Of a DNA stretch of 64,000 nucleotides, positions 29,403-53,010 are shown in pieces (the stretch's first letter is position 1; each line of letters opens with the position of its first letter). The position numbers and the translations under genes are program-made. Source of the DNA: Candidatus Dojkabacteria bacterium (GTDB taxonomy: Bacteria > Patescibacteriota > Dojkabacteria > SC72); the NCBI GenBank assembly GCA_018056375.1, contig JAGPFQ010000001.1:360340-424339 (forward strand). The letters run 5' to 3'. Below the pieces are notes generated by a model. It did not search any database. It worked only from the letters and a program-made list of their open reading frames with translations, and was not told where the DNA came from.

Positions 29403-29420
29403 ATGTTTAATATTTAAATA

Positions 29421-30509: not shown

Positions 30510-30527
30510 ATATATGTGAATACTAAA

Positions 30528-34564: not shown

Positions 34565-34638
34565 ACTATTCTTTTTTTGTAAACCTTTCCCTTTTAAAAA
34601 TATTTCCTCCTTCTTCCCTAAAGTTTTGGAATTTAGTT

Positions 34639-35154: not shown

Positions 35155-35883
35155 CTACCCAATCCAATTACGTATTTCTTTTAACTTCTCATACTCAGGC
35201 ATCTTGTTCTTCCACTTTTTAGGATTCTTAGATGCAACTGAGATTATATATGTAATCTCATATGGTTCTCTTCTATAGTTTTCATAAATAATACTCATAC
35301 CATTCTCTTCAGCGAGTCTTTCTAAAGCAGATGGTGTATATCTCCAATAATCTCTAAAACCCTCCATTTCATGCTGTTGCTGGATAAATGGAACAACAGT
35401 TATCACAATATCTCTACTCATCTTTGCAAGATTTTTGTAAGCCTTTCTAGCATCAAAAATATGTTCTAAAACTGTATGATTAAAAACAACATCAAACCTA
35501 TTAACCAACTCCTTTTTTAAATCTTCTTCCAAATCTAACTCTATTTCGTTCTTTCTATCAGGTAAATGTTGACTGTAATTAGTTATCGTATAAGATGTTG
35601 CTTTAGGAAAATAATCTTTATAATAACCACCATCCTTATCTTTATCCTCCCACCCAGAGACATTAACAACATCACCTTCAAACAAACCTGAAAACTTTTT
35701 TAGTTCTACATTAGACCATGTACGAACTGGATCCGCATTTGGTTCGTATTCATAAGAATGGTTTTCTTCTACATTGTTTTTCTTTAGTATTTTTGACTTC
35801 ATACTTCGTAAAAAGTCCGAAACTTTAATTGCTAACTTAACTGATCTACGATTTAATAACTCCATTGCTTTAGAATATTTCAT
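35155..35883 (-). CDS. Putative class I SAM-dependent methyltransferase
   Basis: FDVVFNHTVLEHIFD resembles the Methyltransf_11 post-II/III region; no clean GxGxG seen. Confidence 0.45.
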   Translation of the reverse strand: MKYSKAMELLNRRSVKLAIKVSDFLRSMKSKILKKNNVEENHSYEYEPNADPVRTWSNVELKKFSGLFEGDVVNVSGWEDKDKDGGYYKDYFPKATSYTITNYSQHLPDRKNEIELDLEEDLKKELVNRFDVVFNHTVLEHIFDARKAYKNLAKMSRDIVITVVPFIQQQHEMEGFRDYWRYTPSALERLAEENGMSIIYENYRREPYEITYIISVASKNPKKWKNKMPEYEKLKEIRNWIG

Positions 35884-36506
35884 TTTGTGTTATGAGGGTG
35901 AAATAAAAAATAAGGATTAATTACTCCATCCATATTATAGATGTTAATATCTATTGTCTTAAAGTCTAATTCTGGGAATTTGGATAGTGCAAAGGGAAAT
36001 GTTAATTGATCTCTGTAGCTATATGTGCATATTAGTTCCCACCATAATCTTCCGAACTCTTTAGCTTTTGTATTTCTGTATATGATGCCACATGCATATA
36101 CTGGAGTTGTATCTACACTCAAACCTCCTGATTTATATAACTGTTCAATATTCTTTATCTGTTTATCATTTACATATCCAGCATCCTTACAAGCATTTAT
36201 CTCATCTCTAATTGTTTTGTTAAAAGGATGTTTAAACACACATAAATCCCCACTAAAAAGTTTTTCAAAACCTTCTCTATCAAGAATCTCTAAATTAGAA
36301 TCTATCCATATATCATAGTTTAGAGGATTGAGTACCTTATATAACTTTGCCATGAGTCTAGGAGATAGATGTTCTGCACAACCATCAAAGATATTATTCT
36401 TTTCATTAAAAATTTTATCTGCATCTTTTTGTTGATTATCATAATCTCCAAAGTTTGCAGTATATAGAAGTTTTTTGCTTTTTAACAGGTCTTTAAGTAT
36501 ACTCAT
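35880..36506 (-). CDS. Hypothetical protein, possibly a DUF616/TOD1-like glycosyltransferase
   Basis: N-terminal LLYTANFGDYDN pattern reminiscent of the IFGxYD block of the DUF616 family; weak. Confidence 0.35.
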   Translation of the reverse strand: MSILKDLLKSKKLLYTANFGDYDNQQKDADKIFNEKNNIFDGCAEHLSPRLMAKLYKVLNPLNYDIWIDSNLEILDREGFEKLFSGDLCVFKHPFNKTIRDEINACKDAGYVNDKQIKNIEQLYKSGGLSVDTTPVYACGIIYRNTKAKEFGRLWWELICTYSYRDQLTFPFALSKFPELDFKTIDINIYNMDGVINPYFLFHPHNTK

Positions 36507-37425
36507 GTATCAAATAGTATACACTAATAAAATGAGAAATAAAGAATGGAAATATAATACTCCCGTATTTGAATATCTAAGAGATCTTTCAGTTGTAGAA
36601 GCCCCATGGGGAGGACATAATTTTTTCGCATATGATTTAGTGGTAAACTTTCGCCCTGCTACAGTTGTAGAATTAGGGACATTCAAAGGATATTCGCTGT
36701 TTTCTTTTTCACAAGCAGTTAAGGATTGTAAATTAAAAACCAAAATACATGCCGTGGATACATGGGAAGGAGATAAACATGCAGGTTTTTTTGGAGATGA
36801 GTTATACAAAGAGTTCAAAAAAGTTTTAGATAAACACTATCAAGATTTGGATATTATCTTACATAGAAAAACTTTTGATGATGCAGTTGAAGAGTTTCAA
36901 AATAATAGTATAGATATATTGCATATTGATGGTTTACATACATACAAGGCTGTTAAGCATGATTTTGAAACATGGCTACCTAAAGTAAAAAAAGATTCTG
37001 GTGTTATTTTGCTCCATGATATTTATGTAAAAAGAGATGATTTTGGTGTCCACAAACTTTGGGCAGAGTTAAAGAAGAAGTATAAAAACACTATAAGTTT
37101 TAAACATTCCAACGGATTGGGAGTTATTCTTTTAGGCACACAGAACATAACAGATAACCCAAAAGATTTCGCAGTCTACTATCAGTATCTAGCAGAGTCA
37201 CAATATAATAAGAAATATGTTGAAGTGTTAGAAGGACAGATAAAACAGAAAGAATCAGAAATACAAGAGTATGATAAGAATTTAAGAATCTGCATCAAAC
37301 AAAGAGAAAGTCTCAAAGAGGACACTTTACTTTTAATGGAAAAAGTAAAAGAATTTGAAGATTTCAAAAAGACAAAGATATGGAAATCTCTAACAGCATG
37401 GAGAAGAATTAAGAGCAAGCTCTAA
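36475..37425 (+). CDS. Class I SAM-dependent methyltransferase (Methyltransf_24/CmcI-like) with C-terminal coiled-coil
   Basis: ATVVELGTFKGYSLFSFSQA...ILHIDGLHTYKAVKHDFETWLPKV...GVILLHDI; C-terminal heptad-like KQKESEIQEYDKNLRICIKQRESLKEDTLLLMEKVKEFEDFKK. The start may be the internal Met at 36505 or 36532, because the track ORF overlaps the divergent upstream gene. Confidence 0.6.
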   Translation: MLFNRSLSILMYQIVYTNKMRNKEWKYNTPVFEYLRDLSVVEAPWGGHNFFAYDLVVNFRPATVVELGTFKGYSLFSFSQAVKDCKLKTKIHAVDTWEGDKHAGFFGDELYKEFKKVLDKHYQDLDIILHRKTFDDAVEEFQNNSIDILHIDGLHTYKAVKHDFETWLPKVKKDSGVILLHDIYVKRDDFGVHKLWAELKKKYKNTISFKHSNGLGVILLGTQNITDNPKDFAVYYQYLAESQYNKKYVEVLEGQIKQKESEIQEYDKNLRICIKQRESLKEDTLLLMEKVKEFEDFKKTKIWKSLTAWRRIKSKL

Positions 37426-38990
37426 GACTCACGAACTTCTTTATGGATTTTCTTCCAAGGAAACAAAGAAAATATTAGAAGAATATAACCTAAAAATACC
37501 GTTATATGAACAGGAGAAACATACCTATCCACTATCGCACCTGTAAATGCATGCAGTAACACATGTAGAAAACTGTATACTAATAGTATAATAACTAAAG
37601 GCAAGATTCTTCTGGAATAAACTCTCTTCCTCTTTATTGATACAAAATAAAGAATCAAAGCTATAACCAACATAAAAGGAAGTAATAAGATAGAATAATT
37701 TGTAACCACAATACTTAGATTTTTATTTAAACCAAGTATGAAACTCGTAATAATAGGAGGATTAACTTTCTGCTCATAGTCAACAACCCTTGTATATAAT
37801 TCAGGAGTCATATGAAAAATATTAGATTTCTCTTTTAGAAGATTTGTTGCAATAATACAGTTTTGATAACAATGCTTGGGTAAAAAATTCTCTTCAATAA
37901 CCAGTAAAGAATCCTGCTTGGATTCGGAATCTGCTTCTGGCTCAACTTCAATCATTTCAAACTTATAGATATTTGATAATACCAAATAGTTATTTAAGTA
38001 CGATTTGAGAACAATACTAGGATGTCTAACAATCACATTTAGTACAAACTTAAGACCAGAAGAACTCGTGATTAAACCCTCCTCATTGAGTTCTATCTTT
38101 AAGCTATCTATAACTTTACCCTCATCATTATAAACTTCAATTTCTTCAGGAATCTCAGAACTGTTAAAATGCCAAGGTGTATCTAACTCTGTTAATGCAG
38201 CAACTAACTGGAAACCTGCAACATTCTTTGGTGTCCTATTTGTATTTCTATCAATACCTTTGTATTCTAATATCTTATTCCAAGCAAACAAAGAAATAAA
38301 TAAACTTAAAAGAGAAAAACAAAAGACAAAGAATATTTGTAACCTCTTCTTCCAAGGCTTAAGTTCCCAAAGAGATAGAAAGACAGCTGCCAGCAACGGA
38401 AAGAACACTATACTCAAATATGGTTGTTTTAAAAACCAAGCAAAGGGAAACATTAACACAAAGTAGATACACAAGAATAGATAGCCTTTTTTATTACCTT
38501 TCCCAACAACATCCAATAATTTCCAAGCTAGAAAACAAGAGATTACTGATACTGTCATAGCAACAAACTCAGTTAATAGGGAATGATAATAACCATATAT
38601 AATTGGGTTTAGAATAACTAAAACTGTAAAAAGTACATAAATCACTGTCTTCAACTTTGGTTTATCCTTTATAACAAGATCTAAAATCTTCTTGGAAAAG
38701 ACTAGCATGAAAAGATAGAAGAAAAAAGAAAACAGTAAAAGACCCATTGTACTTTTCCCAAACAAGACATTGCTTAAATGAATTAATAGTGGGAAAATGG
38801 GTCCTCTAACTATGTCCCAAGTAGAGAAAGGGAGTTTTCTCTCAAATATTGCCACATATTCCATATAGTGAGCACTATCCCACAGTATCAAAACTGGAAA
38901 AGAGAAAAAAAATACAACCAAAACTATAAGTAACAAGAGCTTATAATTACTTTTTATCCAATCTAAAACTTTCTTTAATGATTCTCTCAT
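37422..38990 (-). CDS. Polytopic membrane protein (>=10 TM), candidate GT-C-fold glycosyltransferase (PMT/ArnT/YfhO-like)
   Basis: Multiple hydrophobic helices in the N-terminal two-thirds, hydrophilic loop region in the C-terminal third; sits in a glycosylation cluster next to a GtrB-like gene. Function inferred. Confidence 0.45.
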   Translation of the reverse strand: MRESLKKVLDWIKSNYKLLLLIVLVVFFFSFPVLILWDSAHYMEYVAIFERKLPFSTWDIVRGPIFPLLIHLSNVLFGKSTMGLLLFSFFFYLFMLVFSKKILDLVIKDKPKLKTVIYVLFTVLVILNPIIYGYYHSLLTEFVAMTVSVISCFLAWKLLDVVGKGNKKGYLFLCIYFVLMFPFAWFLKQPYLSIVFFPLLAAVFLSLWELKPWKKRLQIFFVFCFSLLSLFISLFAWNKILEYKGIDRNTNRTPKNVAGFQLVAALTELDTPWHFNSSEIPEEIEVYNDEGKVIDSLKIELNEEGLITSSSGLKFVLNVIVRHPSIVLKSYLNNYLVLSNIYKFEMIEVEPEADSESKQDSLLVIEENFLPKHCYQNCIIATNLLKEKSNIFHMTPELYTRVVDYEQKVNPPIITSFILGLNKNLSIVVTNYSILLLPFMLVIALILYFVSIKRKRVYSRRILPLVIILLVYSFLHVLLHAFTGAIVDRYVSPVHITVFLGYILLIFSLFPWKKIHKEVRES

Positions 38991-38997
38991 ATCTCAT

Positions 38998-41007
38998 TTA
39001 ATTATGATCATATAAGTGGTAAAGCCAGTTACCAAACTTCTTTAAAAGCTTCTTAACAAAATTAGGAACAAACTTGTTTAGAACCTTTATGATAGACAGC
39101 CCTTTTGATACATAAGGAGGATGTGAACCTTGCTGATTATTCTTCATAATCTTCTTTTCTTCCTCTGTAATTGTCTTTTTCTTATCAGAGATTGGTTTTT
39201 CATTCTTAAAAATAGTAAGAAACTTATCTACTGCCTCATCATAATCAAAGTCTTTAATTTTATTTTGGTTATAAGCCTTCATTTTATTCCATACTTCAGG
39301 ATTATGAATAAGATATACAATCTTATTAAAATACTCTGTACTATTATTTATTCGATCAATGATATATCCTGTCTTTCCATCCTCCATATAGTCAAGAACT
39401 CCAAAGGAGTTAGACATTATTGGAACGCATCCTGAAGCCATAGCCTCTAGTCCTATCAATCCAAAACCCTCATTAACGGAAGTATCTACATAAACATCAC
39501 TCTCTTGTAGTATTTTTATTAACTCTAAATTTGGAACAACACCATAGGTTACATTCATCTTGTTATTCTCAATAGAAGGAAGTTCTATATCTTCATTAAT
39601 ACATAAGACATTAAAAACTAACCCTGCCTCTTTGTTATCTAACTCCTTCATGATATCCATCAAAATATAATCTGCCTTCATAACATTATCACGCAATATA
39701 AAAGCTATGTTCTTAACTTTTTCCCTCCGGTTTTCTTTTTGAATTAAGTCATAATTAATACCATTTCTGACTAGATACAAATCTTTTCCAAAAATATCTT
39801 TAATCTTATTTTGCAAGTATGTAGAAATTGTAATTTCATAATCTGCCAATTTATGTGTCAATTCAACACTTCGATAATGCAAACCATTCTCAAAATAGTT
39901 TTCATATCCTTGGACAAAATTCACTAAAGGAACTTTTTTCTCTTTTGCTAATTCATATGCTTTAAAAACAGATGCCCATATCGTAGAGACTATGCGTTTT
40001 ATGTCAAAATCTATATCTCTTGTTTGTTTAATAGGTACAAAAAGCATCTGCTCCTTGTAGTCATCCATTACTTCATAAAGTATGTTAGACTCATGTCCAT
40101 TTATCACAAACTTATTAACTAAATCAACAACTACATGTGTCCCCCCTGCTGACTGAAGTATTCCCGGCAAGTAAAAAAGTGTGTCCAAAGAAATCTTCTT
40201 ATCTTCCTCTGTTATCTGAGATTTAACATATTCCATTGGGTCATTCTTTGAATATTTCTGCATTGTTGCTTCATACTCATCACCCCACCTAGAAAAAAAC
40301 AATCCTCTATTCTTATCAATTCTTTTCTGTTTTTCAGGAGAATTACCAAAGGAGGCCTCCGCCTTATGATATACATACGTATCTATTGCTACTTTTGCAG
40401 TAAAACCTTTAGACATGGCTAGGAATTGATAATCTGTTTCTTCTCCATATCCTAAACCATAAGATTCGTCTAGCTTACCAACTTTTTCAACACATTCTTT
40501 AGTAATCATTAGACAGTTCCCTACTACAGTACAAGCATCAAAAATCTTTCCCTGGAACTTGCTTTCAAGAAGGGCATCCATTTTCATATAACTAAACCCT
40601 TCAAAAATCTCTAAGGAAAGGTTTGCTGCATTGTTAGAGAGGGGAGAAATTAAACCAATCTTCTTATCTTTCTCCATATGGTTCATTAATTTTCCAATCG
40701 TGTTTTTTGCAACAATACAATCTGAGTTTAGGAGAAGAATATAGTCAGAAGAACAAAGTCCCAAACCCTTATTTACATTTTTAACAAAGCCCAAATTCTC
40801 ATTATTAGTAACAACCTTTATTTTTGAGCCATATTTTTTCTTTAAATTCCTCAAAAGACTTTTTGTTGTCTGATTAGAAGCATCATCCATCAGAAATACA
40901 TTTCCCAAAAGTTCTGGAGGGGTATTGATAAAGAGGGAATATACACACAACTTAACCCAATCGGGAGCATTGTAAACAGGAATAATAACATCACATTTCT
41001 TTTTCAT
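38998..41007 (-). CDS. Bifunctional glycosyltransferase: N-terminal GT2 domain + C-terminal GT4 domain
   Basis: GT2: DVIIPVYNAPDWVKLCVYSL...LMDDASNQTT...LLLNSDCIV; GT4: EGFGLIGLEAMASGCVPIMSNSFGVLDYMEDGKTGYII. Confidence 0.8.
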   Translation of the reverse strand: MKKKCDVIIPVYNAPDWVKLCVYSLFINTPPELLGNVFLMDDASNQTTKSLLRNLKKKYGSKIKVVTNNENLGFVKNVNKGLGLCSSDYILLLNSDCIVAKNTIGKLMNHMEKDKKIGLISPLSNNAANLSLEIFEGFSYMKMDALLESKFQGKIFDACTVVGNCLMITKECVEKVGKLDESYGLGYGEETDYQFLAMSKGFTAKVAIDTYVYHKAEASFGNSPEKQKRIDKNRGLFFSRWGDEYEATMQKYSKNDPMEYVKSQITEEDKKISLDTLFYLPGILQSAGGTHVVVDLVNKFVINGHESNILYEVMDDYKEQMLFVPIKQTRDIDFDIKRIVSTIWASVFKAYELAKEKKVPLVNFVQGYENYFENGLHYRSVELTHKLADYEITISTYLQNKIKDIFGKDLYLVRNGINYDLIQKENRREKVKNIAFILRDNVMKADYILMDIMKELDNKEAGLVFNVLCINEDIELPSIENNKMNVTYGVVPNLELIKILQESDVYVDTSVNEGFGLIGLEAMASGCVPIMSNSFGVLDYMEDGKTGYIIDRINNSTEYFNKIVYLIHNPEVWNKMKAYNQNKIKDFDYDEAVDKFLTIFKNEKPISDKKKTITEEEKKIMKNNQQGSHPPYVSKGLSIIKVLNKFVPNFVKKLLKKFGNWLYHLYDHN

Positions 41008-41962
41008 CAGCTTTACCTCTTAATAATTTATTTATCTCTCGCCCCACCCACAACACCACAAACAACACAACTAATACAATAACAATAACCCCCCTATCTA
41101 ATAATGCTAATTGCATAATCTGTTCATTACTAATACCTAGTATATCAGAAGTAATAGAGAAAATCCCCTCTCTAATACCCAATGACCCAGGTGTAATACT
41201 AACTAACAATGATACTCCTGATAAACAGTTGTACAAGATAACATTCATAATACTAACATCTATACCCAAACCTCTAAATTCAAAATAATACAAAAAACCT
41301 GTTGAAATAAAAAAGACAACAGATATACCTATTAAACTCAACAACAATCCTTTATCTTCCACAATCATATTCCAACCCTCAGACACCTTCCTAATTATCT
41401 CCAATACCTTATCTAAAAATTTAAACTTACTCTTGTTGTTCTTCTTTGCAGGTATCTTAAGAAAAGTTAAAATTAACATACCTACAAACAACAACCCAAA
41501 GAAAAGATACAATGGTAATGAACTAACTCCATACTTCAATGTAATTACTAATAAAGATATTAACCCCATAAAAGAGTTAACCAAAAACAGGACAATGTAA
41601 TAACCATATAGAGTAGATACAAAATGGGTATATGGAAAATCAAACCTCTTCTTCAAATACACAGACCTAATAACAGTACCTCCATGTAAAGGAAGAAAAT
41701 AATTACCAAGAGAAGACATTACAGAAACATAGAAAGATTCTAAAACAGAAATAACTTTCTTAAATGATTTAAGTGTAACTTTAATAAAGATACCATTAAT
41801 AAAAAAAGAAACAGATGCTAATAGAAAAATTAGAATTAGATATTTCAAAGGTGTTTGAAACACTGTCTGTAAATCAGACTTATGATTAAAAAAGTAGTAA
41901 ACAAAATACCCTAACACCCCTAAAGTTATAATAACCTTTAAATATTTCCAAATCTTTTTCAT
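40991..41962 (-). CDS. Flippase-like polytopic membrane protein (LPG-synthase-TM/UPF0104-like)
   Basis: ~8 TM helices, 323 aa, in a glycan cluster; family assignment tentative. Confidence 0.45.
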   Translation of the reverse strand: MKKIWKYLKVIITLGVLGYFVYYFFNHKSDLQTVFQTPLKYLILIFLLASVSFFINGIFIKVTLKSFKKVISVLESFYVSVMSSLGNYFLPLHGGTVIRSVYLKKRFDFPYTHFVSTLYGYYIVLFLVNSFMGLISLLVITLKYGVSSLPLYLFFGLLFVGMLILTFLKIPAKKNNKSKFKFLDKVLEIIRKVSEGWNMIVEDKGLLLSLIGISVVFFISTGFLYYFEFRGLGIDVSIMNVILYNCLSGVSLLVSITPGSLGIREGIFSITSDILGISNEQIMQLALLDRGVIVIVLVVLFVVLWVGREINKLLRGKADEKEM

Positions 41963-41963
41963 C

Positions 41964-42710
41964 TTAATGAGTTATAAAAATATACCCTTCACTCAAATCA
42001 GTTTTCACAAACAATCTACTAATCAACCAAAAGGGATAAATTACATATTTATTACTTAAAAACTTCAATGGATTCATCTTCTTTATACTCTTACCACTAA
42101 ACACACTTCTCTCAACCTGACTTTTGTCCTTTACCTTTTTATAGACAAGCGGTGTAGTTATCATTCTCAAATACCTAGTGATATTTATCCATGGATAACC
42201 ATATGCTAAAAGCTCGTAATCCTTGACACCTAAAAAGCCAGCAACTCTCTCAAAATCATTTTTTTCATATCTTCTCAAATGACCAACTGCTTCATCATGT
42301 TTAGACCACATTGACATATGAGCAGGTACAGAGATTATTATTACCCCCTTATCTTTCAATAATTTTTTTACTTTCTCTAAGAAGAGCTTCTCTTCCTCTA
42401 CATGTTCTAAAACCTCCATAGCAATAATTACATCAAATTTTTCATTTTTGAAATCATGTTTAAGAAAATCAGCCTCAATACAAGTTATACTATCTCTTAA
42501 TGTAACAGGAAGTTCTTTATGTGATTGCTTTAACTCCTCAGACATATCAAGAGCTGTTACAGATGCTCCTTTGCTTGCTAGACATTCAGACAAATGTAAA
42601 GTTCCAGCACCTATCTCAAGAATCTTTTTCCCTTTTAAATCATATCTCTTAAGAAGATTAAGTATCTCTAAATATCTAAACCAATATCGCGGACCTTTGT
42701 AGCTACTCAT
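41964..42710 (-). CDS. Class I SAM-dependent methyltransferase
   Basis: Motif I KILEIGAGTLHLSECLASKGASVTALDMSEE; motif FDVIIAMEVLEHVEE. Confidence 0.8.
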   Translation of the reverse strand: MSSYKGPRYWFRYLEILNLLKRYDLKGKKILEIGAGTLHLSECLASKGASVTALDMSEELKQSHKELPVTLRDSITCIEADFLKHDFKNEKFDVIIAMEVLEHVEEEKLFLEKVKKLLKDKGVIIISVPAHMSMWSKHDEAVGHLRRYEKNDFERVAGFLGVKDYELLAYGYPWINITRYLRMITTPLVYKKVKDKSQVERSVFSGKSIKKMNPLKFLSNKYVIYPFWLISRLFVKTDLSEGYIFITH

Positions 42711-43783
42711 TGTTTAAGAAAATTAAATTTATCTTTTAGTCTATCATATGTAAACTTCGTGTTAAAAAGCTCTCTTCCTTGCTTACCAATATCATCTAAC
42801 TTCTCCCTGTTTTCATATGCCCAAAGTATACTATCTGCCAAATCCTGAGCATCACCTTGTTCTACAAGTAAACAATTCTTTTTATCCATAAATCCTACAT
42901 CTTCATCAATCTTACCAATAACAGTGGGTCTACCCATCTGTAGAAATTGATATGCCTTACCTGTAACCACCCTTCTTGCCTGTGGTGTGCCTCCAAAAGC
43001 GCCTCCTAAACAAAGATCTGCAGACTTAATATATTGAGGTAACTTATCAAATTCTATCCATTCAAAATGTTTAATATTCTTTAAAGATTGTTTTTTAATC
43101 TCTTCCCTAAATTCCTCTAATGCTTTTTCATTCCCCCTACCACCAGCTATGATGAATTTAATAGGATACTTTTCTAAAAGTTTAGCTGCTTTCAAAATCA
43201 CATCTATACCATGTAGTGGAAGAAATGTACCATAGAAGAAGAGTGTAAATTCCTCTCCTAAATCAATCTTCTTAGTCTTCTCAATATCAAACATACCCTC
43301 ATCTGTACCAACTGGAATAACCTTAATCTTCTTTTTATCTATACCAAAAGTTTTAGCAAAGAACGAAGCATGAAGATTAGTATCTGTAAGAACATACTCT
43401 GCATCTCTTAATATACTTCTTTCAAGAAAATATATTATCTTTGCTAACAAGGAATTCTTTTGTAATGTTTTCTTTTCATTTACTAAAGAATCATATGGAG
43501 ACATCATTGCATCAAAAACAAACTTCTTTCTCAGTCCAAAAATTCTATACAACCAATATATCTCATGTCCTCTAAATCCAATTATGTAAATATCTGGATT
43601 TACTTTAAATCGTATTTTTAGAAAATTGAAGAAGGTCTCAAAATATCTTATTAACCCTTTTGATTTGTTTCTTGCTTGAAAAAGTTCTATATTCTTTAGA
43701 CGAGATAATGCATTAATTAAGGATGTTGTTCTAACATAGTTGGGGGCTCTGTAGGAGAGAATATAGCATACCTTACTCTTCAT
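42707..43783 (-). CDS. Glycosyltransferase (GT-B, GT4-like)
   Basis: Size and C-terminal nucleotide-sugar-binding-like region; less canonical E-x7-E. Confidence 0.6.
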   Translation of the reverse strand: MKSKVCYILSYRAPNYVRTTSLINALSRLKNIELFQARNKSKGLIRYFETFFNFLKIRFKVNPDIYIIGFRGHEIYWLYRIFGLRKKFVFDAMMSPYDSLVNEKKTLQKNSLLAKIIYFLERSILRDAEYVLTDTNLHASFFAKTFGIDKKKIKVIPVGTDEGMFDIEKTKKIDLGEEFTLFFYGTFLPLHGIDVILKAAKLLEKYPIKFIIAGGRGNEKALEEFREEIKKQSLKNIKHFEWIEFDKLPQYIKSADLCLGGAFGGTPQARRVVTGKAYQFLQMGRPTVIGKIDEDVGFMDKKNCLLVEQGDAQDLADSILWAYENREKLDDIGKQGRELFNTKFTYDRLKDKFNFLKQ

Positions 43784-44720: not shown

Positions 44721-44740
44721 AGTATTAAGTTCTTTTTAGA

Positions 44741-46015
44741 TTATCTCCCAATACCTCTGTATATCACTTTACCTTTTACCAACCTCTCCTTATCCAACTT
44801 ATTCACCCCATCTACTACCACCTTGATATTCTTCCTCTTTAGTATTTCTTCCGTTAAATCACCAAAGGCATCATGATATGTACCTAGTATAACGGCATCT
44901 ACTTTCTCCAGTACACCATCTAATTCTTTTACATCAGAGATATCTAATGTATGAGGGTCATACGATATTACCTCTGCACCCATCTTCTTTAATATATCCA
45001 ATATCTCTAAACTAGGACTCTCTCTAAGGTCTGCTACATTAGATTTGTAACTTAAACCTAGTAATCCAACCTTAGTACCCTTTACTGACTTCTCTATCTC
45101 ATTAAGTCCTTCTTGCAATCTAGATACTGTATACTCTGGCATACTGTTGTTAATATCCCTAGCTATCTTCAAAAACCTATGATCAAAACCTGCTTCCTGT
45201 GCCCTTTTGATTAAGTAATATGGATCAACTGCAATACAATGTCCCCCAACTCCCCTACTTGGCCAATGTACCATGAAAGAGAAAGGTTTGGTAGAAGCAC
45301 CCTTCAATGTCTCAACCAAATCAATATCCATTGCATCAAAAGATTTAGCAAGCTCGTTAACATATGCAATATTAATATCTCTAAATGCATTCTCAACTAT
45401 CTTAGTAGATTCAGCTACCTTAACCGTCGACACCTCATTAATCTCCGCATCTAAAAAGCTTCTGTAGAAATCAGCAATCTCTTTTGTTTTTTCTTTCATT
45501 AGACTACCGATATTTCTAGGAATATTGTACACATTCCACTTAGGGTCACCAGGATTAATTCTCTCAGGACACATAGCTACATTAAAATCTTTACCTGCAA
45601 CTAACTTACTACCTTCCTCCAAAACAGGAACTAAAATTTCTTCACATGTACCTGGATTAACTGTTGATTCTAAAACAACAGTAGCACCTTTCTTTAAGTA
45701 CTTAGATATTGTTTTACCTGCACTAATTACAGGTGTGTAGTCTGGAGTATAGTCATCAAGAACAGGTGTAGGTACACATATGATGAAGATATCCGTATCC
45801 TTTAACTCATCACTATCTGTTGTTGCATGAAGGTCTAATTCATTAAGATCTCTCTCTGCTAGCTCATCGGTTATTGGACACTCCTTTGAGAGTATTCTCT
45901 TAACTTGATCTTTACTAATATCAAAGCCCACCACTTCATATTTCTTACTCCTCTCTATTGCAAGAGCTAGTGGTAATCCAACATAACCAAGTCCTACTAT
46001 TGATACTTTTTTCAT
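44741..46015 (-). CDS. Nucleotide-sugar dehydrogenase (UDP-glucose/UDP-ManNAc 6-dehydrogenase family); start taken at MKKVSIVGLGYVG
   Basis: N-terminal NAD-binding VSIVGLGYVGLPLALAI; catalytic Cys context GGHCIAVDPYYL. Confidence 0.85.
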   Translation of the reverse strand: MKKVSIVGLGYVGLPLALAIERSKKYEVVGFDISKDQVKRILSKECPITDELAERDLNELDLHATTDSDELKDTDIFIICVPTPVLDDYTPDYTPVISAGKTISKYLKKGATVVLESTVNPGTCEEILVPVLEEGSKLVAGKDFNVAMCPERINPGDPKWNVYNIPRNIGSLMKEKTKEIADFYRSFLDAEINEVSTVKVAESTKIVENAFRDINIAYVNELAKSFDAMDIDLVETLKGASTKPFSFMVHWPSRGVGGHCIAVDPYYLIKRAQEAGFDHRFLKIARDINNSMPEYTVSRLQEGLNEIEKSVKGTKVGLLGLSYKSNVADLRESPSLEILDILKKMGAEVISYDPHTLDISDVKELDGVLEKVDAVILGTYHDAFGDLTEEILKRKNIKVVVDGVNKLDKERLVKGKVIYRGIGR

Positions 46016-46063
46016 ATGTGTTTTTTGTAAAATAACTAAGCTATTATATTCCAAAGATACATA

Positions 46064-47410: not shown

Positions 47411-47412
47411 AG

Positions 47413-49290
47413 CTATTCTCTTCTTAATCTAAAATCTTCATGTTTGTAAGATAAATTAACATTATAAAAAGGATCATGTCCTCCTTTTTCAAATATATAT
47501 TGTGGCCATTTCTTTCTTAATTTCTCTGCATTAACTGTATCCTTCTCTAATTTTTCTTTGTTCTTACTATCAAATCTAGTCACAGATTCATAATGTATGA
47601 GTTCTGTATAAGGGGTATATACATTGAACAAACCTTTCTCATCATACAACCTAATTCCAAAATCTACATCCTGATATGCAGGATCAAACTGTTCATCAAA
47701 ACCTCCCATATCTAAAAACAACTTTCTTCTTACCATCATACAAGCTCCTGTGACCGCTAAATAGTTTCTAACATTAACAACACAACCCTCATAACCAAAC
47801 ACATCTCCATCTAACAACCTATGAGAGTGTGCAGCTGCTCCACCAGCACCTACAATAACTCCTGCATGTTGTATTTTGCCATCAGGATAGTAAAGTTTAG
47901 CTCCTACACTACCAACCTCTGGCAACTGAGCCCACTCCAACATACTCTCCAACCAACCATCATTAAGAACCTTAACATCGTTATTAAGTACCAACATATA
48001 TTCTCCATCAACTTGAGTAGCTGCCCAGTTATACAACTTACCAAAATGAAATGGTTTATCATATTTCAAAACCTTAACACCTTTCTCTTTAATCTCTTCA
48101 AAATACTCCTTTGTTTCTTCCTCTTCACTCCTGTTATCCACTATAACTATTTCATAATTATCATACTTTGTATGTTCCCAAATACTATCAATTGCCCTCT
48201 CTAAGTAATCCTTCTTGTCCTTAGTTGGTATTACAATACTAACCTTAGGATTACCGATAATATCAAACTTAATTCTCCAAGCTCCTTCAAAAGAACCTTC
48301 TAGCACCTCTCCCTTTAATTTTCTTCTCTCAAGATATCTCTCTAGTACTGCTCTCTGATTCTCGTATGCCCAACTCTTAGCACCACTACCTGCTAAAGCA
48401 GTAGAACCTGGATATACCCTCCAATGGTAGAGTATCTTAGGAATATGTAAAACCTTCCAATTCCCTCTTGTAAGATATCTCATTACTAAATCCCAATCCT
48501 GTGCACCCTCAGTACCCTTAATAAGTCCTCCTAACTCTTCTACTACATCTCTGGCATAACAAGTAACATGAGTTGTATACATCTGTGCTGTAAGTGTATG
48601 TGGAGACCAATCAGGCCAAAAAGAAGGGTCAAACCTTTTACCATTTTCATCAATCTTATCAAAATCACTGTACATGAATTCTACTTCAGGATGTTTTTCA
48701 ATACCCTTAGCTAACTCCAACAAACAATTCTTAGATATCTCATCATCACAATCCATAAAGACAACATACTCTCCAGTTGCCAAACTCAATGCATTATTAC
48801 TATTCTCAATGATATTAATCCCTTCAATATCAATCGTAGAAAACTTAACCTTCTTACCATACTTCTTAGCAAAGTTCTTAAGAAACTCTCTAGTTTCTTT
48901 AACATTCTTACTAGAACCATCGGATATACATATCTCCCAATTCTCATATACCTGTGAAGTAATTGAATCCAAAGCAGCTTGTAACATCTCTTCAGACTTA
49001 TTCCACACAGGAAATACTATTGAAAACTTAGGATTAACCTTAAGTTTCTTTAAATCACTCTTCATTGATTCTTCGTTGAGATACTCACTCTCTACATTCT
49101 CCATCCATTCCCCATACGATATTCTCATTAGCTTAGAACCATCTCCACCAGTTATTACAAATCTCCAAATCTTTTTTAATATTCTCTTGAAGGTATTTAA
49201 AATACCATGCTTTTTAAAAGAGGTAATTAGTTGTTTGAAATATATTGGTATTCTACTAACTATTCTTTGAAACAGTTCTATTATCTTCAT
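47413..49290 (-). CDS. Tandem-domain GT2 glycosyltransferase (two GT-A domains)
   Basis: Domain 1 FSIVFPVWNKSEEMLQAALDSITSQVYENWEICISDGSS...DCDD; domain 2 VSIVIPTKDKKDYLERAIDSIWEHTKYDNYEIVIVDNRS. Confidence 0.8.
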   Translation of the reverse strand: MKIIELFQRIVSRIPIYFKQLITSFKKHGILNTFKRILKKIWRFVITGGDGSKLMRISYGEWMENVESEYLNEESMKSDLKKLKVNPKFSIVFPVWNKSEEMLQAALDSITSQVYENWEICISDGSSKNVKETREFLKNFAKKYGKKVKFSTIDIEGINIIENSNNALSLATGEYVVFMDCDDEISKNCLLELAKGIEKHPEVEFMYSDFDKIDENGKRFDPSFWPDWSPHTLTAQMYTTHVTCYARDVVEELGGLIKGTEGAQDWDLVMRYLTRGNWKVLHIPKILYHWRVYPGSTALAGSGAKSWAYENQRAVLERYLERRKLKGEVLEGSFEGAWRIKFDIIGNPKVSIVIPTKDKKDYLERAIDSIWEHTKYDNYEIVIVDNRSEEEETKEYFEEIKEKGVKVLKYDKPFHFGKLYNWAATQVDGEYMLVLNNDVKVLNDGWLESMLEWAQLPEVGSVGAKLYYPDGKIQHAGVIVGAGGAAAHSHRLLDGDVFGYEGCVVNVRNYLAVTGACMMVRRKLFLDMGGFDEQFDPAYQDVDFGIRLYDEKGLFNVYTPYTELIHYESVTRFDSKNKEKLEKDTVNAEKLRKKWPQYIFEKGGHDPFYNVNLSYKHEDFRLRRE

Positions 49291-49305
49291 ATATTTACTA
49301 GTAAG

Positions 49306-50526
49306 CTATTCTTCTAAAAGAAAGTCTATAATATTCTTGAACTTAATACCATTCTCTGACATTACAAAATTCACATCCATTGAAAGAACAACTTTCTCAT
49401 AATGGTCTTTAATACTCTGTAATGCAGACATCTCTCTCTCTTTTACACTTTTATCCAACAGTGATTCTGTAACTTGGAAATATATTTTCTCATCAGGTTT
49501 AGTTGCAACAAAATCGACTTCTTTACTACCAACTTTACCTATGGAAACTTTGTATCCTCTTCTAAGAAGTTCTAGATATACTACATTTTCTAATATATGC
49601 CCTCTATCTACATCTCTATATCCCAACAACATATTCCTTATACCAGTATCTACTATGTAATATTTTTGTAATGTTTTTAAGTATTCTTTTCCTTTAATAT
49701 CATAACGAGAGACAGGGTAGAAAATGAAAGCCTTTTCCAATGCTGATATGTAACTAAGAACAGTAGAGTGTCCAGTCCCCTTCTTTTCATCTTCAACATA
49801 TTCTTTGTTACTGGAAAGATAGTTGGATATATTCCTAGCTGAAATGAAACTACCTATGTTATCAGAAAGGTACAATACTATATTTCTAAGAAGTTTCTCA
49901 TTTCCAAAGTTATTCCTCTCTATTACATCCTTTAACATGGCAGTTGAATATATACCCTCCAACATTGTATATGTTCCAACTTCATTAAACTCATACTCAC
50001 TAACTGCAGGCATACCACCATACTTTAGAAAAAGATCAAAATTCTCTCTACTACTTTCTAAGTTATTAAAATCTAAGAACTCTTTGTATGACAATGGTAA
50101 CATTTTTATCTCAACATACCTTCCAGAAAGAAATGTAGAAAGCTCTGATGAGAGTAGATATGCATTAGAACCAGTTATGTATATATCTACATCTGAATCT
50201 ATATTCAAAGAGTTTACAGCTTTTTCCCAATTTTTCACTACCTGTATTTCATCGAGAAGAAGATAGACTGTTCCTTTTGTTTTCTTTATTCTTTCTTTAA
50301 TGTAATCATACAAATCAGTACTATCAACAATATTTCTAAACTCTTCTAATTCAAAATTTATTTGAACTATATTCTTTGCATCTGCATTACATTCTTTTAG
50401 TAAATATTCTTTAAAAAGTTCTAATAATGCTGATTTACCACACCTTCTAACACCAGTTATTACCTTAATCTGGCTTTTATCTTTAAATACTATTAGTTTT
50501 TTAAGATATTCATCTCTATTTTTCAT
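49306..50526 (-). CDS. AAA+ ATPase of the AAA_14/DUF4143 family
   Basis: Walker A ITGVRRCGKSALL; Walker B YLLLDEIQ; ~400 aa with C-terminal DUF4143-like region (restriction-endonuclease-like fold in homologues). Confidence 0.75.
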   Translation of the reverse strand: MKNRDEYLKKLIVFKDKSQIKVITGVRRCGKSALLELFKEYLLKECNADAKNIVQINFELEEFRNIVDSTDLYDYIKERIKKTKGTVYLLLDEIQVVKNWEKAVNSLNIDSDVDIYITGSNAYLLSSELSTFLSGRYVEIKMLPLSYKEFLDFNNLESSRENFDLFLKYGGMPAVSEYEFNEVGTYTMLEGIYSTAMLKDVIERNNFGNEKLLRNIVLYLSDNIGSFISARNISNYLSSNKEYVEDEKKGTGHSTVLSYISALEKAFIFYPVSRYDIKGKEYLKTLQKYYIVDTGIRNMLLGYRDVDRGHILENVVYLELLRRGYKVSIGKVGSKEVDFVATKPDEKIYFQVTESLLDKSVKEREMSALQSIKDHYEKVVLSMDVNFVMSENGIKFKNIIDFLLEE

Positions 50527-50561
50527 ACTGTATTATACAAAAAAATGAAAAATACGTCAAC

Positions 50562-50627
50562 AGTTTGGCGTACACACAAGCCAAACTCTTCATTTTTATA
50601 CACTTTGGCTTACACGCAAGCCAAACT
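50562..50627. promoter_or_regulatory. Two tandem, near-identical hairpins AGTTTGGC-N10-GCCAAACT (50562-50587) and ACTTTGGC-N10-GCCAAACT (50602-50627), between the ABC-ATPase stop and the AAA+ ATPase start
   Basis: Read directly; the second is followed by TTTTAAAA on the plus strand. Confidence 0.5.
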
Positions 50628-50628
50628 T

Positions 50629-51363
50629 TTAAAATGTAGCACTATATCTATCAACAATATCATTAGGCTCCCCTATCTCATATGTCTTGTCTTCCTTCAA
50701 CCAAAGTACTCTATCGGAATATCTTCTTACACTCTCTAACCCATGAGATACAAAGAGTATTGTCTTCTTACCAACAATATCATCAAAATATGCAAAACAC
50801 TTCTTTTGAAACTCTCCATCACCTACTGCTAGTACTTCATCAAGAACTAAAATATCTGATTTAACTCTAATTGCAATTGAGAAAGCTAATCTAACTTGCA
50901 TACCAGATGAGAATTTCTTAATGGAAAGGTCTTCAAACTCCTTGAGTTCTGCAAAATCAAATATATCATCTACACTCTCATTAATTTCCTTCTCAGTAAG
51001 ACCAAGAATTGTACCATTAAGATATACATTCTCCTTTGCACTAAGGTCAGGATTAAAACCAACTCCTAATTCCAAGAAAGGAACAAGCTTGCCATTAACA
51101 TCTATCGTACCCCCATCAGGAATGTAGATACCTGATATTAACTTTAACAGTGTAGACTTACCAGCACCATTAGGACCAATTACACTAAAGAACTCTCCTT
51201 TCTTAACATCAAAAGAGAGATCTTTAAGAGCAACAAAGTCAATCATCTTCTTCTTTGCAAAAGGATTTACAAATCTCTCTTGCAAAGTAGTAGGAGAACC
51301 ATGTTCTGGTATTCTAAATCTCTTTGTTAAATTTGTTACTTTTATTGCTAAATTATCTTCCAT
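50629..51363 (-). CDS. ABC transporter ATP-binding protein (ABC-2 polysaccharide/teichoic-acid exporter type, Wzt/TagH-like)
   Basis: Walker A GPNGAGKST; signature FSSGMQVRLAFSIA; Walker B ILVLDE. Confidence 0.9.
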   Translation of the reverse strand: MEDNLAIKVTNLTKRFRIPEHGSPTTLQERFVNPFAKKKMIDFVALKDLSFDVKKGEFFSVIGPNGAGKSTLLKLISGIYIPDGGTIDVNGKLVPFLELGVGFNPDLSAKENVYLNGTILGLTEKEINESVDDIFDFAELKEFEDLSIKKFSSGMQVRLAFSIAIRVKSDILVLDEVLAVGDGEFQKKCFAYFDDIVGKKTILFVSHGLESVRRYSDRVLWLKEDKTYEIGEPNDIVDRYSATF

Positions 51364-51367
51364 ATTT

Positions 51368-52141
51368 TTAAAAATGTTCAGCTACTTTTTTAATATGTTT
51401 GTTAAAATATATTTTTCCAAGAATTACTAAAACAATGGAAATAGCTAGAGCTAGGAGTACAAATTTTAAATCTGTAACTTCTCCAAATATTAATGCTTCT
51501 CTTACAGCTTTTACAAATCTTGCCATTGGATTGTAGTAGACAATGAATCTGTACTTCTCTGGAATCATCTCAACTGGAAAAAATACTGCACTAGCATAGA
51601 AGAGAAGTTGTAAAACAAGCTCCATAATATGTTGCAAGTCTCTTACATGAACAAGCCATATACTGGTAAAGAAGGAGACACCGTAAAGAGATAGAAACAT
51701 GGTAAGACCTATGAGAAAAACATATGCAAGGCCAATTAGACTGATATTGATTTTCAGTATTAATGCCACTACAAGTACAATTAGAAGATTAATCGAAAAG
51801 TTGATGAGTGCCATACTTAGAGAGCTAGCAACTACTACATCTCTTTTGAAGTTGATTTTAACAATCAACTGAGCTCTTTCCATTATTGAGCCCATACCCC
51901 AAATCATACCTTCATTAAAGAATGTGTATACTATTAATCCTGAAAGAAGATAGACTGCATACTGTTGCTGTGTAAGACCTCCAACTGCTGATGCTGTATG
52001 TGAGAAGATTAGAAAGAGAATGAGGAACATGAAGAAAGGTTTAAGAAGAACCCAGAAGAAACCTAAGATAGAGCCTTTGTATCTCATCTTGAAAGTTGTT
52101 TTTACAAATTGTTTGTAAAGGTCTAAATCATTCTTGTCCAT
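51368..52141 (-). CDS. ABC-2 type transporter permease (Wzm/TagG-like)
   Basis: 6 TM helices, 257 aa, immediately upstream of the ATPase. Confidence 0.8.
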   Translation of the reverse strand: MDKNDLDLYKQFVKTTFKMRYKGSILGFFWVLLKPFFMFLILFLIFSHTASAVGGLTQQQYAVYLLSGLIVYTFFNEGMIWGMGSIMERAQLIVKINFKRDVVVASSLSMALINFSINLLIVLVVALILKINISLIGLAYVFLIGLTMFLSLYGVSFFTSIWLVHVRDLQHIMELVLQLLFYASAVFFPVEMIPEKYRFIVYYNPMARFVKAVREALIFGEVTDLKFVLLALAISIVLVILGKIYFNKHIKKVAEHF

Positions 52142-53010
52142 TATTTCTCCTTTAAAAATTCTTTTAAAGTAATTCTCCTAGAGTATATCATTTTCCATAC
52201 TAACCAGTTAAAAAGATACCAGATTGTCTCCCATATTGCCACCCATAATCCTTTTCTACTCTGGATACTCCTAAATCTATTCTGCATATTCATGATGTTC
52301 CTCTTTCTAGTACCTAAACTTTTAGAAGATGCCATATGGTCATGATATACCTCTGATGTCCCTACGTAGTAAAGTTTATACCCTAAATCCCTAATCCTAA
52401 GTGAAAGATCGATGTCCTCATAGTACAGAAACATACTAGGATTGAAGCCTCCTACTTTTTCAAATACTTCTCTTTTAACTAAAAATGCTCCTCCCATTAA
52501 TGCATCAACCTCCTCTACGACATTGTATTTAGGTTTATCTTCTTCCTTGTCATATCTATCATACGCCATGTAATGTTCATCAACCTCTATTCCTGCAGAA
52601 TTAATAATTCTCATCTCACTTCCTATTCTTTCTTTAGAATACAAAACCTTCGGACCAACTGCTCCTACATTTTCTTTTTGTAGTTCTTTGACTAGATTGT
52701 CTAAAAATCCTTTGGGTACAGAGATATCATTGTTTAGGAAAAGATATGCATCATAGTTGGGATACTCCTTAACACCCAAATTATTTCCTCTACCAAAACC
52801 TAAGTTCTCTCTACTCTCAACTATCTTTACAGAAGGGAATTCTTTTTTAAGATATTCAATACTACCATCTACAGATGCATTATCAACTACAACAACATCA
52901 AAATCTTCATATCCATTCTTCACAACAGAGAGAAGATTCTTCTCTAGAAGGTGCTTTCCATTGTAGTTTACTATGACTATTAGTATTTTCATTGACCCAT
53001 TATACCCCAA
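52141..53010 (-). CDS. GT2 glycosyltransferase
   Basis: MKILIVIVNYNGKHLLEKNL...DVVVVDNASVDGS...; DxD-like YLFLNNDI. Confidence 0.85.
   Translation of the reverse strand: MGYNGSMKILIVIVNYNGKHLLEKNLLSVVKNGYEDFDVVVVDNASVDGSIEYLKKEFPSVKIVESRENLGFGRGNNLGVKEYPNYDAYLFLNNDISVPKGFLDNLVKELQKENVGAVGPKVLYSKERIGSEMRIINSAGIEVDEHYMAYDRYDKEEDKPKYNVVEEVDALMGGAFLVKREVFEKVGGFNPSMFLYYEDIDLSLRIRDLGYKLYYVGTSEVYHDHMASSKSLGTRKRNIMNMQNRFRSIQSRKGLWVAIWETIWYLFNWLVWKMIYSRRITLKEFLKEK

Follow-up and report, generated by a model that had tools for sequence, protein, structure and literature searches.

The rhamnose cell wall polysaccharides (Rha-CWPS) of streptococci, lactococci and enterococci are encoded by loci (gac, rgp/scc, cwps and epa) with rml genes alongside, several family 2 and family 4 glycosyltransferases (GT2 and GT4) and Wzm/Wzt-type export; those with GacIJKL or CsdAB/CflA add a GT-A synthase of a polyprenyl-phosphate sugar and a polytopic GT-C glycosyltransferase that acts outside the membrane, and multicomponent transmembrane glycosylation follows the same logic (PMC9574508, PMC8035078, bioRxiv 10.1101/180810). 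The surface layer (S-layer) glycan cluster slg of Geobacillus stearothermophilus NRS 2004/3a (wzm-wzt-wsaE and further genes, rmlACBD and WsaP) includes WsaE, a methyltransferase with two glycosyltransferase domains (PMC2943079). In archaea, a gene neighborhood of an AglD-type GT2, a UPF0104 protein and a PMT-like protein has been predicted (PMC5898192; Makarova et al. 2015). Here, we analyzed a 64-kb stretch of a Candidatus Dojkabacteria genome (contig JAGPFQ010000001.1; referred to below as the window) that carries, at positions 35155-53010, an island of glycosyltransferase, methyltransferase and exporter genes. On balance, this island probably forms the variable central part of a locus for a cell-surface glycopolymer, which would be exported by an ATP-binding cassette (ABC) transporter and decorated by GT-C enzymes on the outer side of the membrane.

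Among described systems, the island appears to resemble most the Rha-CWPS and S-layer glycan loci of Gram-positive bacteria. It has in common with Rha-CWPS the neighboring rml genes, several GT2 and GT4 enzymes, Wzm/Wzt-type export and the combination of a GT-A synthase with polytopic GT-C proteins; moreover, the family of one of its GT-C proteins, of 522 amino acids (aa), adjoins GacI/GacJ-like genes in other phyla. Unlike Rha-CWPS loci, the window has neither GacH nor GacO, and no RgpF/GacG-type (PF05045) or LCP protein was found among the window open reading frames (ORFs) scanned, a subset of all window ORFs to which the domain absences given below refer unless another scope is named; an RgpF domain is present in a Caldisericia relative (L010). 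Further differences are a PF03706 (MprF-like) candidate flippase instead of GtrA or Wzx, a GtrB-type synthase with transmembrane (TM) helices of its own instead of GacI plus GacJ, the presence of two GT-C proteins and three methyltransferases, and a host from the candidate phyla radiation (CPR).

With slg, the island shares ABC-dependent export, wzm-wzt followed by a multidomain glycosyltransferase, rml genes downstream and a WbaP-type phosphoglycosyltransferase that is available as an initiator. The architecture of WsaE is found fused in another Dojkabacteria contig (L087), as a 929-aa protein of Methyltransf_24 and two GT2 domains, and split in the window, where the methyltransferase and a tandem GT2 are encoded by separate genes. 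In contrast to slg, no WsaB/Wzy_C-type oligosaccharyl:protein transferase was detected, and the GT-C enzymes and the polyprenyl-phosphate GT2 of the window have no counterpart in the slg model. As in the archaeal triad, an AglD/AglJ-like GT2, a UPF0104/PF03706 protein and a PMT/STT3-like GT-C are linked by neighborhood, and the window GT2 scores best against AglJ. However, the archaeal proteins belong to dolichol-linked protein N-glycosylation, with the flippase-like domain often fused to the GT2, whereas the window proteins are separate, bacterial and encoded inside an ABC-exporter polysaccharide operon; the flippase role is putative in both.

The locus is distinguished by its CPR host, by a GT-C family that is unannotated and has a highly consistent gene neighborhood and by a PF03706 candidate flippase in place of GtrA/Wzx. 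It extends known biology and does not overturn it, since the underlying logic is established in Firmicutes, Gram-negatives, mycobacteria and archaea. CPR bacteria live attached to other microbes, and their surface polymers are therefore likely to matter for host recognition and phage attack. Our literature search found no paper describing cell-surface glycans of CPR bacteria, and the locus provides a concrete parts list.

A conserved locus in Dojkabacteria

An initial annotation of the window had marked a glycan island of about 18 kb at 35155-53010, and its ORFs and coordinates agree with ours (Table 1). Of the 16 ORFs in this interval, 15 are on the minus strand; the remaining one, the gene for the Methyltransf_24 protein, had been placed there as well but lies on the plus strand. 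From 53010 to 37422, 13 minus-strand genes follow one another with overlaps or with gaps of at most 20 nt, except for a 102-nt gap before a gene for an AAA_14/DUF4143 ATPase. The plus-strand gene is convergent with the gene for the 522-aa GT-C (4-nt tail overlap) and divergent from a TOD1/MUCI70-like gene. This gene content and the tight operon structure support a function of the island in glycopolymer production.

Further support comes from a second Dojkabacterium (L088), in which a single locus holds the GtrB-like GT2, the flippase-like protein, a PMT_2 GT-C, Wzm/Wzt, the dehydrogenase and rmlBACD. The genes that L088 and the window have in common form a long series, with identities of 47 to 86%. 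The order in L088 is GtrB-like GT2, 289-aa GT2 (61% identical, upstream of wzm), Wzm, Wzt, tandem GT2, dehydrogenase (77% identical and followed by a WecB-type 2-epimerase), flippase-like protein and PMT_2 GT-C, and then a Methyltransf_24 gene divergent from a TOD1-like gene, rmlBACD and a GT4. L088 does not contain the cassette of fused GT2-GT4 and 522-aa GT-C, the 358-aa GT4, the 248-aa and 242-aa methyltransferases or the AAA_14 gene. The tandem GT2 has orthologs with 74 to 77% identity beside wzt in L088 and in another Dojkabacterium, L012; TOD1-like orthologs (44 to 69% identical) lie in the same divergent arrangement beside rmlB in L087 and L088; and orthologs of the GT4 at 25469-26662 (50 to 59% identical) follow rmlD in the same two loci. 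The proposed tie between the rml (rfbBACD) operon and the island is confirmed by synteny of rmlBACD with island genes in L012, L087 and L088.

From synteny with L087 and L088, the island reaches beyond the limits initially drawn, to rmlBACD and the GT4 downstream of it. The conserved Dojkabacteria locus thus delineated extends from 53010 to about 25469, and by the same comparison the window copy is broken by AAA_14, S8 peptidase and RhuM insertions. Its predicted backbone is composed of the GT2, Wzm/Wzt, tandem GT2, NDP-sugar dehydrogenase, O-methyltransferase and rmlBACD. The AAA_14/DUF4143 gene had been omitted from the initial annotation. In L088, no such gene separates wzt from the tandem GT2, and a related gene lies between rmlB and rmlA in L087 (2377-3513); from this distribution, we regard the AAA_14/DUF4143 gene as a sporadic insertion outside the glycan pathway. 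Promoter and terminator scans of the region gave counts that did not exceed the shuffled expectation and yielded a single strong site, the region's best sigma-70-like match (50560-50532), which is near-consensus and is located in the 102-nt gap just upstream of the AAA_14 gene. The gene looks like a sporadically inserted, possibly selfish or defense-related element that targets glycan loci.

Export, chain synthesis and sugar supply

The ABC-2 exporter that had been recognized initially was borne out by Pfam and NCBIfam matches. Wzm matched the NCBIfam galactan-export Wzm and KpsM models and Wzt the TagH and galactan Wzt models (163 to 181 bits), all below cut-off. Wzt consists of the nucleotide-binding domain only; its length of 244 aa leaves no space for a C-terminal carbohydrate-binding module (CBM). 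Wzm and Wzt are encoded adjacent to multidomain glycosyltransferases, as in ABC-transporter-dependent pathways. The tandem GT2 matched the chondroitin synthase K4CP among PDB sequences (1.4e-15) and is a candidate bifunctional chain polymerase. The 289-aa GT2 is weakly rhamnosyltransferase-like, judged from a match to TIGR01556 (66 bits, below cut-off).

A UDP-sugar 6-dehydrogenase is present, as initially described, and the uronic acid ascribed to it is more likely the uronate of an N-acetylhexosamine (HexNAc). In NCBIfam, the enzyme scored 286 bits against UDP-ManNAc dehydrogenase and 242 against UDP-GlcNAc dehydrogenase (TviB), compared to 173, 139 and 54 against models of UDP-Glc dehydrogenase, and it is therefore probably specific for UDP-HexNAc. 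A WecB-type 2-epimerase was not found among the ORFs scanned. Together with the rml genes, this assignment makes it probable that the glycopolymer contains rhamnose and HexNAc-uronate; it is probably also O-methylated.

Of three S-adenosylmethionine-dependent methyltransferases initially proposed, two are solid. The third, of 242 aa, stayed below the Pfam gathering cut-offs, matched PDB methyltransferases at E values of about 0.01 and had a homologue in none of the related loci searched. For the 248-aa enzyme, NCBIfam gave no specific assignment. The Methyltransf_24 protein showed weak matches to an NCBIfam rhamnosyl O-methyltransferase model (N-terminal) and to the methyltransferase of PDB entry 6g7d. 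Its C-terminal tail is heptad-like and charge-rich, matches a coiled-coil model and ends in a basic C-terminus, and the protein has a C-terminal motif in common with its L088 ortholog. In the ABC-dependent system of Escherichia coli O8/O9a, the coiled-coil methyltransferase WbdD works with a Wzt that has a CBM. ABC dependence, the coiled-coil-like tail and the basic C-terminus are features shared with that system; in contrast, a kinase domain is absent in the window, the coiled-coil-like segment is, at about 60 aa, far shorter and Wzt has no CBM. For these three reasons, we put forward a role of the Methyltransf_24 protein as a chain-terminating cap enzyme, to which its tail points, as a possibility.

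No initiating phosphoglycosyltransferase is encoded between 25 and 53 kb. A WbaP-type enzyme is encoded 22 kb away (12614-13402), together with two GT4 enzymes. The initial annotation had tied these genes to the island, and a single finding speaks for this tie: in one Saccharibacteria locus (L054), their homologues lie 8 to 9 kb from a homologue of the 522-aa GT-C. These genes are a possible initiating module for the island.

Two polytopic proteins with a GT-C fold

Both large polytopic membrane proteins of the island have the GT-C fold, as had been proposed. We are confident of this assignment: fold comparison favors GT-C over a transporter or an O-antigen ligase, and neither of the latter was near the top of the fold matches for either protein. 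The 448-aa protein matched Pfam PMT_2 with 31.9 bits (cut-off 26.1) and PMT with 25.7 bits (cut-off 22.7). The 522-aa protein had no match in Pfam-A or NCBIfam, and a profile of its family found nothing meaningful among PDB sequences. It has about 11 to 13 hydrophobic or helical segments and an extracytoplasmic domain of ~170 residues and is structurally similar to solved GT-C enzymes, with ArnT and PMT, not oligosaccharyltransferases, as the best fold matches. GacL is reported to be a PMT_2 protein, a family model that the 522-aa protein does not match. In both polytopic proteins, a basic N-terminus is followed by TM1 and a conserved aspartate: D38 of a WDS motif, just after TM1 in the first extracytoplasmic loop and conserved in at least 90% of 43 sequences of the 522-aa family, and the invariant D43 of a PDE motif (the loop-1 DE motif) after TM1 of the 448-aa protein. 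The two residues align in the sole segment that hhalign matches between the families, which are related at best remotely (hhalign probability, 28%). Homologues of both proteins are named from Dojkabacteria.

At 50% identity, the 522-aa family comprises 432 clusters among 1.84 billion representatives. Scanning of GTDB species representatives with the family alignment yielded 74 loci, from Dojkabacteria, Saccharibacteria, Caldisericia, Chloroflexi, Clostridia, Erysipelotrichaceae, "Mollicutes" and many uncultured Bacilli; the same scan gave no match in Streptococcus, Enterococcus or Lactococcus. All window proteins were then compared by tblastn with the 60 loci that were 12 kb or longer, and a match was counted as a homologue if it covered at least 60% of the query. 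Homologues of the fused GT2-GT4 were present in 40 of the 60 loci (45 to 55% identity), mostly directly beside the GT-C gene, and a polyprenyl-phosphate-type GT2 was present in 36, mostly as the next gene. Homologues of Wzt were found in 46 and of RmlB in 20 loci, and Wzm homologues lay within 10 kb of the GT-C gene in 32. The flippase-like protein, the 248-aa methyltransferase, the 358-aa GT4, the dehydrogenase, the PMT_2 GT-C, the TOD1-like protein and the other methyltransferases had homologues in at most one locus each. The usual gene order is GT2-GT4, GT-C, short GT2 and DUF2304, the last being the GacJ family (bioRxiv 10.1101/180810); an iterated hidden Markov model (HMM) placed a DUF2304-like ORF within 3 kb downstream of the GT-C gene in 42 of 64 loci. 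Several members of the family carry a fused GT2 at one end or the other, and the C-terminal GT2 of one protein (P0084) aligns to the 315-aa GT2 of the window with an E value of 7e-26. Hence, the GT2-GT4/GT-C cassette is spread across monoderm phyla, usually together with GacI/GacJ-like genes.

From these neighborhoods and fusions, the 522-aa family appears to be the GT-C partner of GacI/GacJ-type synthases, and the same genomic linkage suggests that the 522-aa protein uses a polyprenyl-phosphate-linked donor. The window is atypical for the family, since it is without DUF2304 and has a GtrB-type synthase instead. It is also conceivable, but in our estimate improbable, that the 522-aa protein attaches the finished polymer to cell wall, protein or lipid as the final acceptor, or joins polymers, like WpsJ of Lactococcus: WpsJ-type GT-C proteins move whole oligo- or polysaccharides (PMC9574508), the extracytoplasmic domain of ~170 residues would suit such a function, no LCP or WaaL-type ligase is among the ORFs scanned, and the family is linked more often to Wzt and GT2-GT4 than to the polyprenyl-phosphate GT2. 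However, the GacI/GacJ-like genes directly after the GT-C gene in most loci and the occasional GT2 fusions are the signature of a user of monosaccharide-phosphate polyprenols, like GacL, and the best fold matches likewise speak for a transferase of the ArnT and PMT kind. As a lead, this unannotated family stands out for its tight ties to GacI/GacJ-like synthases and Wzm/Wzt exporters in many uncultured monoderms.

In a Caldisericia metagenome-assembled genome, the GT-C/GT2-GT4 cassette is followed by a gene for a 1449-aa protein (L010/L013, 11635-15984) with Glyco_transf_99-like and RgpF domains. This protein is a candidate giant rhamnan polymerase.

A lipid-linked sugar synthase and a candidate flippase

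The 315-aa GT2, which had been called GtrB-like and lipid-linked, is a polyprenyl-phosphate glycosyltransferase of the GtrB/ArnC type as judged from near end-to-end alignments and its two C-terminal TM helices (residues 232-250 and 272-290). In PDB, it aligned with ArnC over residues 2-305 (E value, 9e-10; best ArnC entry, residues 2-297 and 4e-12) and with Pyrococcus DPMS over nearly its full length (3e-10). The best-scoring NCBIfam models were AglJ (143.7 bits, 7.6e-42; cut-off 325), PpgS (85.6 bits; cut-off 370) and PgfS, with ArnC at 42.3 bits (cut-off 529); no equivalog cut-off that would name the sugar was reached. A predicted GT-A synthase of a polyprenyl-phosphate sugar is thus encoded together with GT-C transferases, as in the GtrABC, CsbB-GtcA-YfhO and GacIJKL systems.

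The flippase-like protein that had been noted initially scored above cut-off with both Pfam LPG_synthase_TM (118.4 bits; cut-off 33.4) and NCBIfam TIGR00374 (50.1 bits; cut-off 43.2). It consists of the membrane domain only, without an aminoacyl-phosphatidylglycerol synthase domain (bifunc_MprF, 20.6 bits; cut-off 600), and is 100% identical to an NCBI protein of Candidatus Dojkabacteria. This PF03706 protein is our candidate for the flippase of a lipid-linked sugar. Its gene and those of the 248-aa methyltransferase and the 358-aa GT4 form a row in which neighbors overlap or abut, and this order of GT4, modifying enzyme and UPF0104 flippase is also that of gpgSDF (PMC12713373). The three products could therefore form a synthase-modifier-flippase unit that externalizes a modified membrane glycolipid, in the manner of gpgSDF of Pseudomonas aeruginosa and hexSDF of Clostridioides difficile; the product would then be an anchor or a GT-C acceptor and not a polyprenyl-phosphate donor. 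The experimentally supported substrates of PF03706 proteins, which are phospholipids (PMC5898192; bioRxiv 10.1101/2022.03.11.483950), would fit. We nevertheless give this explanation little credence: the GT4 and the methyltransferase accompany the flippase-like gene in no other locus examined, whereas a GT-C does and GT-C enzymes use polyprenyl-linked donors, and a GtrB-type GT2 is encoded directly upstream of the GT4. The 358-aa GT4 itself had one partial tblastn match (less than 60% query coverage) in the 60 related loci and none in L086 to L088.

Five Dojkabacteria-like loci with a flippase-like gene (L086, L088, L089, L090 and L091) were looked up individually. In four of them the gene is immediately upstream of a PMT/PMT_2 GT-C gene, often overlapping it; in L091 it adjoins a 464-aa unannotated gene. 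In L086, L089 and L090, the pair has beta-lactamase-like, LiaF or ribosome-hibernation genes as neighbors, and polysaccharide genes are absent from the surrounding 6 to 10 kb. The most serious of the three competing explanations follows from these contexts: the flippase and the PMT_2 GT-C, fed by the GtrB-like GT2, could constitute a glycosylation system of general use for proteins or lipids, like actinobacterial Pmt/Ppm1 or the archaeal AglD type, whose embedding in the locus is incidental and which does not decorate the exported polymer. The PMT/GT39-like nature of the 448-aa protein, with its DE motif after TM1, agrees with this explanation, as do the four genes that separate flippase-like and PMT_2 genes in the window. 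On the other hand, both the window and L088 hold the pair inside a wzm/wzt-rml operon with a GtrB-like GT2, and the PMT_2-type proteins GacL, CsdD and GtsC decorate cell wall polymers in Firmicutes (PMC8035078, Table 2). We consider a general system unlikely, though clearly less so than either the ligase or the glycolipid unit.

On a Dojkabacteria-like contig of 210 kb (L090, 10131-10892), a heliorhodopsin gene is located two genes downstream of the flippase-like/PMT pair.

The initial annotation had treated the island as a single unit, and in relatives this holds in part. The flippase/PMT_2 pair stands alone in L086, L089 and L090, and the cassette occurs without the pair in many Firmicutes and in L012, where the pair is not in range. 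Since its modules come apart in this way, the island is a mosaic. 

Taken jointly, the comparisons raise the possibility, which we rate a little below even, that the PF03706 proteins are dedicated polyprenyl-phosphate-sugar translocases for PMT-type GT-C enzymes in Dojkabacteria and perhaps CPR bacteria, and that the 522-aa protein represents a new GT-C family that, in uncultured Firmicutes, Chloroflexi, Caldisericia and CPR bacteria, is the cognate transferase of GacI/GacJ-type synthases. If so, PF03706 would join GtrA and Wzx as a third class of flippase for transmembrane glycosylation in bacteria, one that archaeal AglD systems have as well. The recurrent PF03706/PMT-type pair could in this way identify the flippase that is missing from many glycosylation systems.

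The proposed pathway

The pathway proposed here takes the observed folds, domain content, gene order and cross-genome linkage as its basis; its sugars and acceptors, the substrate of its flippase and the role of methylation are predictions. In the cytoplasm, dTDP-L-rhamnose would be made by rmlBACD and UDP-HexNAc-uronate by the dehydrogenase. The 289-aa GT2, the K4CP-like tandem GT2 and the GT2-GT4 enzyme would assemble the chain on a polyprenyl carrier, the Methyltransf_24 protein and possibly the other methyltransferases would O-methylate it, and Wzm/Wzt would export the lipid-linked polymer. In parallel, the GtrB/ArnC-type GT2 would load a sugar onto polyprenyl phosphate; the GT4 and the methyltransferase, whose genes overlap, may lengthen or alter this sugar. 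The PF03706 protein would then carry the lipid-linked sugar across the membrane, where the two GT-C enzymes would pass it to acceptors outside. A methylated, rhamnose/uronate-type glycopolymer with ABC-dependent export and an extracytoplasmic GtrB/GT-C step, as suggested initially, is thus the best reading of the components and the rml synteny.

Several points weigh against this pathway. The genes were read from sequence alone, and the organism is uncultured. No WecA-type initiator, no LCP ligase and no WaaL/Wzy_C-type ligase were found among the ORFs scanned, so that the pathway as drawn accounts for neither initiation nor final attachment; GtrA, Wzx (Polysacc_synt) and an RgpF-type rhamnosyltransferase (PF05045) were likewise not found there. 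No GacJ-like protein was detected in the six-frame translation of the window with an HMM that represents 59 DUF2304-like ORFs from related loci. The island has one polyprenyl-phosphate GT2 for two GT-C enzymes. PF03706 proteins have been tied experimentally to the translocation of phospholipids or glycolipids and not of polyprenyl-phosphate sugars. Since the flippase/PMT_2 pair is often found in housekeeping contexts (L086, L089 and L090), it may serve another acceptor. Finally, Wzt is without the methyl-cap-reading CBM known from E. coli O8/O9a.

Coordinates and neighboring genes

Table 1. Genes of the island and associated glycan genes, with window coordinates
Feature	Position	Strand	Basis
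GT2, 289 aa, first operon gene	52141-53010	-	Pfam Glycos_transf_2 1.5e-19
Wzm, ABC-2 permease	51368-52141	-	Pfam ABC2_membrane 5.7e-17
Wzt, ABC ATPase, 244 aa	50629-51363	-	Pfam ABC_tran
AAA_14/DUF4143 ATPase	49306-50526	-	Pfam AAA_14 6e-35, DUF4143
Tandem GT2, 625 aa	47413-49290	-	Two GT2 domains
GT-C glycosyltransferase, PMT_2/GT39-like, 448 aa	46064-47410	-	Pfam PMT_2, PMT
NDP-sugar 6-dehydrogenase	44741-46015	-	Three UDPG_MGDP_dh domains
Polyprenyl-phosphate glycosyltransferase, GtrB/ArnC/DPMS/AglJ type, 315 aa	43773-44720	-	GT2 domain and two C-terminal TM helices
GT4, 358 aa, overlaps both neighboring genes	42707-43783	-	Pfam Glycos_transf_1, Glyco_trans_1_4
Class I S-adenosylmethionine methyltransferase, 248 aa	41964-42710	-	Pfam Methyltransf_11 2.4e-16 and related models
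MprF-flippase-like membrane protein, PF03706/UPF0104, 323 aa	40991-41962	-	Pfam LPG_synthase_TM, TIGR00374
Fused GT2-GT4, 669 aa	38998-41007	-	Pfam GT2 (residues 7-117), GT4 (449-582)
GT-C fold glycosyltransferase, unannotated family, 522 aa	37422-38990	-	Fold match; no family model
Methyltransf_24 O-methyltransferase, 297 aa	36532-37425	+	Pfam Methyltransf_24 4.8e-26
TOD1/MUCI70-like putative glycosyltransferase, 208 aa	35880-36506	-	Pfam PF04765 26.4 bits (cut-off 21.4)
Class I methyltransferase, 242 aa, probable (weak)	35155-35883	-	Pfam Methyltransf_12, _31 below cut-off (E 7e-4)
rmlB-rmlA-rmlC-rmlD, dTDP-L-rhamnose synthesis	27944-31544	-	Pfam
GT4 downstream of rml, part of conserved Dojkabacteria locus	25469-26662	-	Pfam
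WbaP-type phosphoglycosyltransferase and two GT4	12614-15576	-	Pfam Bac_transf 2.7e-57, GT4; NCBIfam EPS_sugtrans, WbaP

Assignments in Table 1 are from Pfam, NCBIfam and PDB sequence searches. The same locus is present in several metagenome assemblies at 98.5 to 100% identity; SRR11088405 is one of the metagenome sources with exactly this locus. The GC content is even over the island and its flanks, and a horizontal acquisition inferred from composition was rejected because the GC content of the island is not anomalous compared with that of the flanks.

Between rmlD and the downstream GT4, the window has a RhuM-family gene (26906-27910, plus strand). Nothing lies at this position in L087 and two small genes (DUF456 and DUF3800) do in L088; since the two relatives differ here, the RhuM gene is probably one more insertion into the locus. 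A gene for an S8 peptidase/FG-GAP surface protein (31658-34980, minus strand) is split by a 2-bp AT insertion into ORFs of 113 aa, containing the signal peptide and N-terminal part, and 968 aa. The gene is unsplit (1095 aa) in a contig with 98.5% identity (L001), and the split is common to a contig with 100% identity (L002).

Divergent from the operon, at 53077-54243 (plus strand), a gene encodes a protein of 388 aa that combines a signal or TM segment with a bactofilin-like repeat region and several TM helices at the C-terminal end; it had a homologue in none of the related loci examined. An 816-aa protein of CarboxypepD_reg, SdrD_B and Big_1 Ig-like repeats (9563-12013), whose gene adjoins recO and the phosphoglycosyltransferase/GT4 module, is likely a surface adhesin. 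The window also contains two tandem dCTP-deaminase-like genes and a gene for a Fic/DOC protein with a C-terminal MarR/TrmB-type helix-turn-helix (1635-2644 and 5586-6599), which are unrelated to the glycan locus.

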